From Nitrospirota bacterium (GTDB lineage: Bacteria > Nitrospirota > Thermodesulfovibrionia > Thermodesulfovibrionales > Dissulfurispiraceae), in assembly GCA_040754455.1 (NCBI GenBank), contig JBFMCP010000042.1:1-23415 (forward strand): a stretch of DNA of 23,415 bases, written 5' to 3'. The position numbers were made by a program. Shown piece after piece: positions 1 through 3,000 of the stretch. The stretch's first letter is position 1, and every line of letters starts with the position of its first letter.

Positions 1-3000
1 CGCCGCCGTTGGTGGTAAGACCAACCTTTACTCCCTCTTTCGCTGCATGGTCGAGGATGGTGAAGAACTCCTTGTGGAGCGTCGGCTCGCCCATCACATG
101 GAATGTTATTTTTTCGCAGATGCCGTTGCTGCCGAGCTCGGAGATGATGCGTTTGGCAAGGTCCGTCTCCATGGAACCGTAGGGCCGCTTCATTTCGGAC
201 TTCGGGCAGAAGACACAATTGAAGTCACAGACATTGGTCAGCTCTATGTGCACCCGCTGGAGCGGAATCTCGATATGGCCGAAGCGTTTCTTCCTCATAA
301 TCCTTTGCTGCACTGAAGGTACCTACCTATTCTGACGCAAACGGAATGTTTTTTTCCATACGCAGGGAATAAATGGGGTGATGGAGTAATGGGTAGCTAT
401 GCTTCGGATGTTTTTTTCAATACTCCGATACTCCAACGCTCCATTTTTATCCCCTCTTCTTGGACAAATGTGATAAAAATGATAATATAGAAAACATTCA
501 AGAAACGAGGTACGGGTATGATTGAAAATACGCCTCCTGTCACGGCAGCGGTTGAAGTTGTGCGCGCGGCGGGGATCGAATATTCGGACCACCTCTACGC
601 CTATGAGGAAGGCGGCGGCACAGCGGACTGCGCAAGAGAGCTCAACGTTGATGAACACGCTATCGTGAAAGTGATCGTCCTGGAGGCCGACGGAAAGCCT
701 TTTATCGTTCTCATGCACGGCGATATGAGGGCATCGACTAAGGAGCTTGCAAAAATAATCGGGGCAAAGAGCATTCTACCCTGTGTCCCTGAGAGAGCGG
801 AACAGCTTACAGGATATCAGACCGGAGGTATCTCTCCCTTCGGCACACGCTCTGAAATGCCGGTATATATGGAAGAGACCATCCTCAATCTTCGCAAAGT
901 CTACATAAATGGCGGCAAGCGGGGCTATTGCATCGGCATAGACCCGTACGATATCGTCAAAATCCTTCGTCCCACCATCGTAAAGGTCGGCTCCGCACGC
1001 GGGGCCTGAGTAGTCCACATTTCTGGGAGTTCCCAGAACCAAAAGCCGGACCAGAAACAATGACAGGATTTCCTTCCTTTCGGTGCTGCACGTTTATAAT
1101 AAAAATTTTTAATAATTCTATAGTTACGTAGATAACACCATTTGAGTGTGGTACATTTTTAATTAACCTTGGAGCCATGAAGCAAGGAGGTCAGGGATGA
1201 CGCTGAAGGAAGTGCTGCAAGCGAAAACAACAAAGATGGTCACCTGCAAGACAACCTGCCTTGTCGCTGATGCGGTGACCGTCATGGACGGGCATAACAT
1301 AGGTTCAATACTGGTCCTTGATCATGATGACAAACTGGCCGGCATCTTTACTGAAAGGGACATCATGCATTGCTTTGTAAAGAAAATCTCTTTCAATGAG
1401 GCGAGGATCGGTGAAGTCATGACCCCCAACCCGATAACTGTCAACGGATCGGAAGATATCAGCGTTGCGATCAAGATCATGTCGGAAAAGAGGATCAGAC
1501 ACCTCCCGGTCATGGAAGACGGGAGGCCTATCGGTGTGGTCTCTTACCGCTTTGTAGTTCCCTACCTGCTGCCTGAGGCTACCTATAAGTCGGACGATAT
1601 CTATTAGGTGTATTTATACAAAAACCTTGCCCGTATTCCTCGGTATCCGGTATGCGGAGATGGCATGAGCTCATCGTAAGCGTGCAGGGGATATCATGGT
1701 GCCAAAGGTTACCTAAAGTTACATAATTATTGATCGGGATAAAGCCCCTGTGTTAAAGTAAAATAGCTTGTCTTATCGAAGACAGAGTTCGTGAGGCTGT
1801 TGGGAAAGAGTGGAAGTATCGTAAATTTTTTATAGATTTTGCCGCATTCAGCTGCAAAACTTTCCATCCTTTCGGGATAAAAATTTGCAAAAAAACAAGC
1901 AATAAACAACAATACTGCTGCGATGAGGAAAACTCATGAAAGAAACCTTTGATCAGATCATCACAAAGTACAGGGATACCGGAGGCAATGTTATTTTCCT
2001 GCTCCAGGAGACTCAGGATGCACTGGGGTATATCCCCGAAGAGGCGATTAACTACTTTTCAGAGGAGCTCGATATCCCCGCCAGCCGCTTCTACGGAGTC
2101 GTCACCTTCTACTCGCAGTTCCATCTGAAACCAAGGGGCAAGAACGTCATTTCGGTCTGTTGCGGAACCGCCTGTCATGTCAAGGGCGGATCCAAGATAG
2201 CCGAGCGGGTCCAGAGGGACCTCGGCCTTGCCGCTGACGGAGAAACGACCGAAGACGGACAATTCACCTTTGAGGTCGTGCGGTGTGTCGGGGCCTGCAG
2301 CATCGCCCCTGTGGTATTGGTGAATAACAAGGCCTATGCCGAAATGACTGCCGACGGCACGTCAAAGCTCATCAAACAACTGAAAAAAGAGGGGCCAGAT
2401 GCAGCAAACTGATGTCGAATATAAGGCACAAAATGATGATGGAAAGAAAAAGGTCGTCGTAAGGGTCTGTATAGGTACGGGTGGCCTTGCTGCCGGAGGC
2501 AAGGAGGTCATCCAGGCGTTCAAGAAGGCAATTACCGATTTCTGCGTTGATATCGATCTCGATTTCACCTGCCATTACCAAAAGGTAGGTTGCCGCGGTT
2601 TCTGCGCGCGGGACGTTCTCGTCGATGTTGTTGATAACAATACAAGTGTTACCTACCAGGGCATAAAGCCTGATAATGCGTACAGGATCGTCAAGGAGCA
2701 TCTAATAGAGGGCAAGCCGATTACCGAGTGGCTTATCGACGACTCATACTATGCCTTTCATTCCAAACAGCACAAGGTACTCCTCAAGGATTGCGGCTCC
2801 ATAGACCCCGAAAACATCCATGCGTACATCGGTGTCGGAGGGTATGAAGGAATAAAGAAGATCCTGGCAGGAATGACCCCCGAGGATGTGATCGCCGAGA
2901 TCAAGGCATCGGGCATCCGCGGCAGGGGGGGCGCCGGTTTTCCGACAGGAGTGAAATGGGAAGCCTGCCGTAAGGCCCCGGGCGAGAAAAAGTACATCGT

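Follow-up and report, generated by a model that had tools for sequence, protein, structure and literature searches.

A ybaK gene in the window (i.e., the whole 23,415-nt stretch of a Nitrospirota contig that was analyzed) very probably recodes an in-frame UGA as selenocysteine (Sec) via SelB, and it probably represents a real family of selenoproteins that has escaped description and whose gene neighborhood is firm. We infer Sec insertion from comparisons among loci, which revealed the conserved UGA, the SECIS element, the coding constraint, the gene linkage, and the shifted conservation presented below. A preliminary description of this DNA had the 163-aa frame running on through the UGA to give a 181-aa product with a hairpin, and the window sequence bears this out (Table 1). 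Seventeen open codons, coding VVHISGSSQNQKPDQKQ, lie between the TGA at 1007-1009 and the TGA at 1061-1063, and the gene read with TGA as U encodes 181 aa ending in SARGA-U-VVHISGSSQNQKPDQKQ, in which the SARGA linker (residues 159 to 163) is specific to the clade defined below. The consensus scan detected two sites against 2.8 expected, so the promoter-like site of ybaK is not significant alone; a AAATGATAAAATA motif upstream of ybaK recurs in the clade loci that were inspected.

Table 1. Features of the window around the ybaK gene and its downstream operon
Feature	Position	Strand	Basis
Promoter-like site of ybaK, with extended -10 element TG-n-TAATAT at 480-488	461..488	+	Consensus scan
YbaK/INS-fold core of ybaK	518..1006	+	ATG at 518, 163 codons; PF04073 above cutoff
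In-frame UGA, putative Sec codon U164	1007..1009	+	TGA in 26/26 clade loci
11-nt spacer coding V-V-H-(I)	1010..1020	+	Translated and constrained, as judged from third-position changes
Predicted bacterial SECIS hairpin, 7-bp stem, AGUU loop at 1028-1031	1021..1038	+	Model criteria, fold, covariation
C-terminal tail of 17 residues with the true stop after it (TGA 1061-1063)	1010..1063	+	Frame open after UGA
Sigma-70-like promoter of downstream CBS/FDH genes	1129..1157	+	Pattern in 24/26 clade loci
Stand-alone CBS-pair protein, invariant C17, C21, and C59	1197..1607	+	Family comparison
NuoE-like [2Fe-2S] subunit	1936..2412	+	PF01257
NuoF-like FMN/NADH/Fe-S subunit	2399..4219	+	PF01512, PF10589, Fer4
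Formate dehydrogenase alpha subunit (fdhA), Sec TGA 5296-5298 (CARL-U-HAP), SECIS 5310-5328	4168..6921	+	TIGR01591, hairpin

We read 185 loci and retained 154 distinct loci with a readable stop, dropping four run-off frames and duplicates. The clade was defined solely by two protein motifs that precede the stop (i.e., DMRxS and LxLRK); the window is among its 26 loci, and two pairs of loci are nearly identical. Every one of the 26 loci in this single Nitrospirota clade combined a TGA with the hairpin core, and the offset was the same throughout. The core occurred in none of the 128 non-clade loci, although the search pattern was specific to the clade core and these loci were not probed for any other SECIS element. 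The stops of the non-clade loci (72 TGA, 34 TAG, and 22 TAA) agree with the mixed stops previously noted for distant YbaKs. On a tree of 25 clade loci (length, 4.52; the 5'-truncated locus L054 was left out), the TGA underwent no change, and third codon positions of the gene averaged 6.66 changes. Within the unpaired 11-nt spacer, third codon positions, of which there are three, account for 21 of the 30 parsimony changes (no other of the 165 position triples ranks higher), and Val+2 is kept via three codons. This third-position bias in an unpaired segment indicates that the sequence after UGA is translated and constrained. Judging from the alignment, protein-level constraint in the tail is limited to the first three to four codons (i.e., U-V-V-H-[ILV]), and G-S-S-Q is the SECIS stem-loop itself; tail length ranges from 10 to 18 aa among the clade loci, with residues after +9 varying freely. 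The conserved tail proposed earlier is thus retained only for U-V-V-H-[ILV].

Two other readings of this region were rejected. Sec at the second TGA (1061-1063) is contradicted by the mixed second stops of the clade loci (14 TGA, 9 TAG, and 3 TAA), which have no common hairpin 3' of them, and an overlapping +1-frame ORF runs into an immediate stop in 14 of the 26 loci.

The hairpin (TTCTGGG-AGTT-CCCAGAA) follows an 11-nt spacer, its stem starting from the 12th base after UGA, in line with the 12-nt distance first given. The bacterial SECIS model, as described in PMC13188914, has a loop of 3 to 9 nt, a stem of 4 to 16 bp, a G within the first two loop positions, a distance of 16 to 37 nt from the UGA, and an energy of <= -7.5. 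The ybaK hairpin lies within all four criteria of that source (loop, 4 [AGUU]; stem, 7; offset, 18; -9.6 to -12.4 kcal/mol), and the loop offset of 18 nt is common to the fdhA SECIS element of the same window. Taken singly, the sequence is unremarkable in its folding over 57 nt (z = -1.31; as good in 20 of 200 shuffles); the 18-nt core gave z = -2.52 (as good in 4 of 200 shuffles). Similar hairpins were detected 3' of long-frame ends in this genome at 32 of 4677 TGA, 17 of 3168 TAA, and 14 of 2325 TAG codons; since the filter also passes TAA- and TAG-ended frames, one sequence alone proves nothing.

Across 24 aligned clade loci, 94.6% of the stem cells are paired, both-side changes occur in 13 stem cells (a count reached by 0 of 500 shuffles, with lower counts in slid controls), and four of the seven stem pairs are invariant; two pair-count covariation measures were not above shuffles (241 and 273 of 500). 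The retention of TGA and hairpin with compensatory stem changes, reported before for relatives, was thereby reproduced on fresh loci. The G-U and compensated pairs suggest that the hairpin acts as RNA and not as a DNA site. The spacing between hairpin and TGA is fixed and that from the TGA to the downstream promoter pattern varies from 80 to 224 nt among the clade loci, which ties the hairpin to the UGA and not to the promoter. No Rfam match was obtained within positions 400-2000 of the window, and no terminator was called at the hairpin. The DNA pattern of TGA plus hairpin matched 2 of 301 genomes of the phylum, both at known clade loci. Taken together, the 26/26 conservation of TGA and core, the covariation, and the third-position bias give the Sec readthrough originally proposed good comparative support.

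Among the best 120 of 3820 protein database matches, the C-terminal pattern assigns 89 to the clade, 72 have a length of 163 aa, and none of the 120 extends beyond the UGA position. Neither a tail-aligned protein nor a Cys counterpart was found in these 120 proteins, in the 37 of 37 matches to query residues 120-181, or in the best 150 of 3130 matches of an all-representatives search; the earlier statement that no Cys homologue was found therefore holds over all three sets. A Cys counterpart exists for nearly all selenoproteins according to section 6 of PMC13188914. That none was found here sets the family apart from most selenoproteins and is our chief reservation. The tail has no CxxU or UxxC motif. 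A plasmid search yielded matches of <60% identity only, and the ESM Atlas yielded generic YbaK clusters only. Close YbaK homologs were present in 25 of 390 genomes of the class, 18 of them with the full clade form, so the gene is patchy.

The genome (100% complete) encodes selA, selB, tRNA-Sec, and Sec-type SelD, and in FdhA, a peroxiredoxin, rhodaneses, and others, an in-frame TGA stands where a Cys codon would be expected. The preliminary description gave the ybaK hairpin the same loop as other Sec genes. An AGTT loop is indeed located 3' of the TGA in two multiheme cytochrome genes; that of fdhA (AGTCT) is only near. Among the 17 other genomes with a full clade gene, 14 carry selA, and the three without it are 74 to 84% complete. 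However, selA is nearly ubiquitous in the class (349 of 390 genomes), and its co-occurrence with the clade gene does not discriminate.

Further candidate selenoproteins of this genome include a multiheme cytochrome (EGEG-U-AKAV; L246:442-1776, minus strand), a thioredoxin-like protein (FEG-U-AGC; L247:400-990, minus strand), and a large multiheme protein with two paralogues (GKF-U-PPS; L253:217-2949, plus strand). In addition, a NuoB protein (L245:651-1187, minus strand; G000:C27:37150-37686) that scores above the NF005012 and TIGR01957 cutoffs carries a TGA in place of the first Cys codon of GLA-C-C-AIEM, and a conserved hairpin follows. Of the 51 matches listed, in 41 genomes, 19 contain one internal TGA, and the codon is TGA in seven and TGC in three of 10 loci. 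This first Cys is an Fe-S ligand of complex I, at which NuoB would be a candidate Sec/Cys pair. A NuoB selenoprotein is absent from Table 1 of PMC13188914, and none was apparent from the titles of the papers listed on NuoB and selenocysteine.

Downstream of ybaK, the fdhA gene read through its TGA scored 891 bits against TIGR01591 (cutoff, 666). A Cys-rich CBS gene and/or nuoE/nuoF-like genes were located <=1.5 kb downstream on the same strand in all 23 clade loci whose downstream sequence spans >=600 nt, a linkage absent from the preliminary description; of 109 non-clade loci, five had a distant CBS gene only (34 to 42% identity). These five canonical ybaK loci (L109, L115, L185, L193, and L196) carry it ~1.1 kb downstream. 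Among 14 longer clade stretches, nuoE/nuoF-like genes were found in 14 and fdhA pieces in 13, the remaining contig ending. The downstream neighbors of the clade gene do not vary but the upstream ones do, and in two relatives a transposase-like ORF was recognized by eye upstream (L219:2363-3538 and L220:765-2231). Since a separate promoter serves the downstream genes, the linkage need not mean shared function. An AT-rich motif just 5' of the -35 element of this promoter (window positions 1098-1125) is conserved across the clade loci and is likely an operator. The CBS protein often has a C-terminal Cys besides the three invariant ones, and the same CBS domain is fused to the C terminus of ~780-aa NuoF-like proteins; in two genomes, this fusion follows the clade ybaK gene instead of a free CBS gene. 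The NuoF-CBS fusion is common in the class. Three clusters (G000:C2:39554-45084, L227:4279-9842, and L222:4561-10226) combine a nuoE-like gene and the fusion (~780 aa) with genes for an Fe-S protein of 200 aa and a NuoG/molybdopterin-like protein of 670 aa.

The protein had been described as an aminoacyl-tRNA deacylase, of which the fold stands: PF04073 (tRNA_edit) matched at 86.6 bits (cutoff, 25.5), and the predicted structure matched 1dbu (Foldseek E value, 6.6e-17; rmsd, 1.7 Å). The activity is only putative, given a TIGR00011 score of 143 bits that is below the cutoff of 153.25, shifted conserved positions, and an acidic core. The gene is the sole stand-alone PF04073 gene of the genome. 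K51, aligned to K46 of the Haemophilus influenzae protein (1dbu), is present in all 98 clade proteins; the GGxSP and GGxxG loops are likewise retained, with G103, P107, and G133 invariant and S106 in 97 of the 98. A near-universal Lys of the INS superfamily accommodates the CCA end (K45 in ProXp-ala; PMC10164551). The kept K51 and loops would fit a continuing tRNA role.

The clade is monophyletic (support, 0.86; 98 tips). Its overall diversity (0.69 for 98 sequences) equals that of 154 other YbaKs (0.68), but it varies at 20 sites fixed in the latter (e.g., Y29, G33, G34, T52, R79, N131, and R135) and has 10 newly fixed sites (among them M70, R71, A72, N124, R126, K127, and D142). Y27 and N131 correspond to pocket residues of canonical YbaK. 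A symmetric count (19 versus 16 sites) reveals that the shift runs both ways and is thus a shift of constraint, not just decay. The net charge of the core is -1.7 in the clade versus +3.0 in sister YbaKs. C89 is invariant in the clade, and C38 occurs in 84 of 98 clade proteins versus 24 of 154 other YbaKs. The new fixed residues at equal diversity, the charge shift, the monophyly, and the patchy occurrence suggest repurposing, and the family may have left proofreading. In two AlphaFold2 models, built with Cys in place of U164, the tail had no defined position (pLDDT, <50). A complex prediction of the 163-aa protein (tail left out) with a CBS dimer scored 0.01, which speaks neither for nor against a complex. 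One 545-aa protein (P0134) has a 4Fe-4S double-cluster and HEAT domain followed by a YbaK domain, which may be a fusion or a gene-calling artifact.

In the mechanism that we propose, SelB with Sec-tRNA would bind the hairpin 11 nt past UGA164, Sec would be inserted, and translation would end at 1061. As to function, we give about an even chance to a repurposed YbaK whose flexible Sec arm serves the adjacent CBS-regulated, NAD-linked Sec-formate dehydrogenase module by thiol/selenol exchange; the partner and the chemistry are our conjecture. A YbaK paralogue would have become an accessory factor of this module, with the five-residue linker bearing U164-V-V-H-I as a flexible arm, for which docking in the form of a short hydrophobic strand is the likeliest mode. 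The arm could undergo thiol/selenol exchange with the protein's own invariant C89 or frequent C38 or with an invariant Cys of the CBS domain, and the formate dehydrogenase module would thereby be kept reduced or be tuned to redox state and selenium supply.

Other explanations differ on whether the UGA is read through at all and on what the product does. If it were a true stop, the hairpin would be an mRNA end protector, an operator palindrome, or a SelB decoy. TGA is the commonest stop of the non-clade YbaKs, the database proteins listed all end at it with no Cys homologue among them, and the single-sequence fold is unremarkable. Nevertheless, a true stop is very unlikely in view of a TGA never exchanged over the whole tree, codon periodicity that continues past it, a hairpin at fixed spacing from it and variable spacing from the promoter, stem pairs that point to RNA, and the lack of a called terminator or Rfam match. 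A second alternative accepts Sec insertion but makes the readthrough event itself the signal of selenium supply to the formate dehydrogenase module, the 163-aa form with its small-residue end being degraded or inactive and the read-through form stable or active. It accords with the missing Cys version among the proteins compared and with a tail free in length and sequence past the SECIS element. The truncated forms end in Ala-Ala in 40 of 86 cases, and in 84 of 86 the final two residues are small ones or else His plus Thr; clpX is present in the genome. Terminal Ala-Ala is critical for ClpXP tags, but it is insufficient and is weak after Gly or Ser (PMC10862746). Moreover, the form in the window ends in Gly-Ala, 46 of the 86 lack an Ala-Ala end, V-V-H-I is constrained as protein, and the downstream genes are served by a separate promoter whose distance varies, which argues against attenuation. 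We regard such a switch as distinctly unlikely.

The Sec protein might instead still be an aminoacyl-tRNA deacylase whose arm supplies an enzyme-borne nucleophile, a new chemistry acting on, e.g., Ser-tRNA(Sec) or other tRNAs wrongly charged with Sec, under heavy synthesis of the Sec-formate dehydrogenase. The K51 and loop residues described above, the 1dbu fold, and the lack of another stand-alone PF04073 gene favor this, as does the ordinary YbaK chemistry, which depends on the thiol of the substrate itself (PMC3973320, PMC11295145, and PMC12449066). However, seven sites fixed in the sisters (Y29 to R135, listed above) are variable in the clade, the core is acidic, the neighbor is formate dehydrogenase and not proS or sel genes, and the tail lies outside the pocket or unplaced in every model; we consider a retained deacylase rather unlikely. 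Stated more broadly, the chances are slightly better than even that a tRNA-editing scaffold gained Sec on a new C-terminal arm without a Cys precursor and became either a selenium/redox partner of formate dehydrogenase or an editing enzyme with its own selenol.

Compared with the YbaK/EbsC Cys-tRNA(Pro) deacylase (TIGR00011, PF04073; H. influenzae HI1434, 1dbu), the clade protein has the fold, the Lys, and the GGxSP and GGxxG loops in common, and it differs in its score below the TIGR00011 cutoff, its extra SARxx-U-VVHI arm, its acidic core, its new fixed surface residues, and its formate dehydrogenase context. Canonical YbaK uses a substrate thiol and not a chalcogen of the enzyme, whereas the arm of the clade protein bears a putative Sec. 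The gene resembles fdhA-type genes with an intragenic bacterial SECIS element in its UGA, 11-nt spacer, short stem, and offset of 18, as well as in a loop with G in second place and U next to it and an energy of < -7.5 (consensus in PMC13188914). Unlike them, it has no Cys homologue found and no redox motif, and its Sec is on a tail that relatives lack. By score, then, it belongs to the INS superfamily but is not classed with the TIGR00011 Cys-tRNA(Pro) deacylases, and it would operate like an fdhA-type Sec gene. SaoL, SaoC, and KCU-star (bioRxiv 10.1101/2022.07.06.499078) are similar cases, with database proteins that stop at one aligned position and a conserved neighborhood with another selenoprotein; the SaoL extension restores MerB-like homology, whereas no homologue was found with the YbaK extension.

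The YbaK family is not among the 119 families in Table 1 of PMC13188914, as the preliminary description had also found, and "YbaK" and "deacylase" each occur zero times in the available text of that paper. "YbaK" likewise occurs zero times in the available text and four supplements of PMC12013277, and no Sec-containing YbaK was found in the available parts of PMC13326102, PMC13745706, or bioRxiv 10.1101/2022.07.06.499078. Literature on YbaK with selenoprotein and on Cys-tRNA with selenocysteine yielded no Sec-YbaK by title or abstract start (the BSepDB family table was outside this coverage), searches on YbaK with formate dehydrogenase and CBS domain or on SECIS-like readthrough yielded no match, and the NCBIfam hits included no Sec-YbaK model.

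Given that no Cys form is known, the family is invisible to searches for Cys/Sec pairs, and it is a candidate for an origin of Sec by stop readthrough and tail extension and not by Cys-to-Sec exchange. Each of the claims is testable in Escherichia coli with a small soluble protein and an 18-nt hairpin. If true, they would bring selenoproteins to a fold without a selenium record in the lists compared, as a further family, and would connect the formate/CO2 redox metabolism of anaerobic Nitrospirota with a scaffold from translation quality control.
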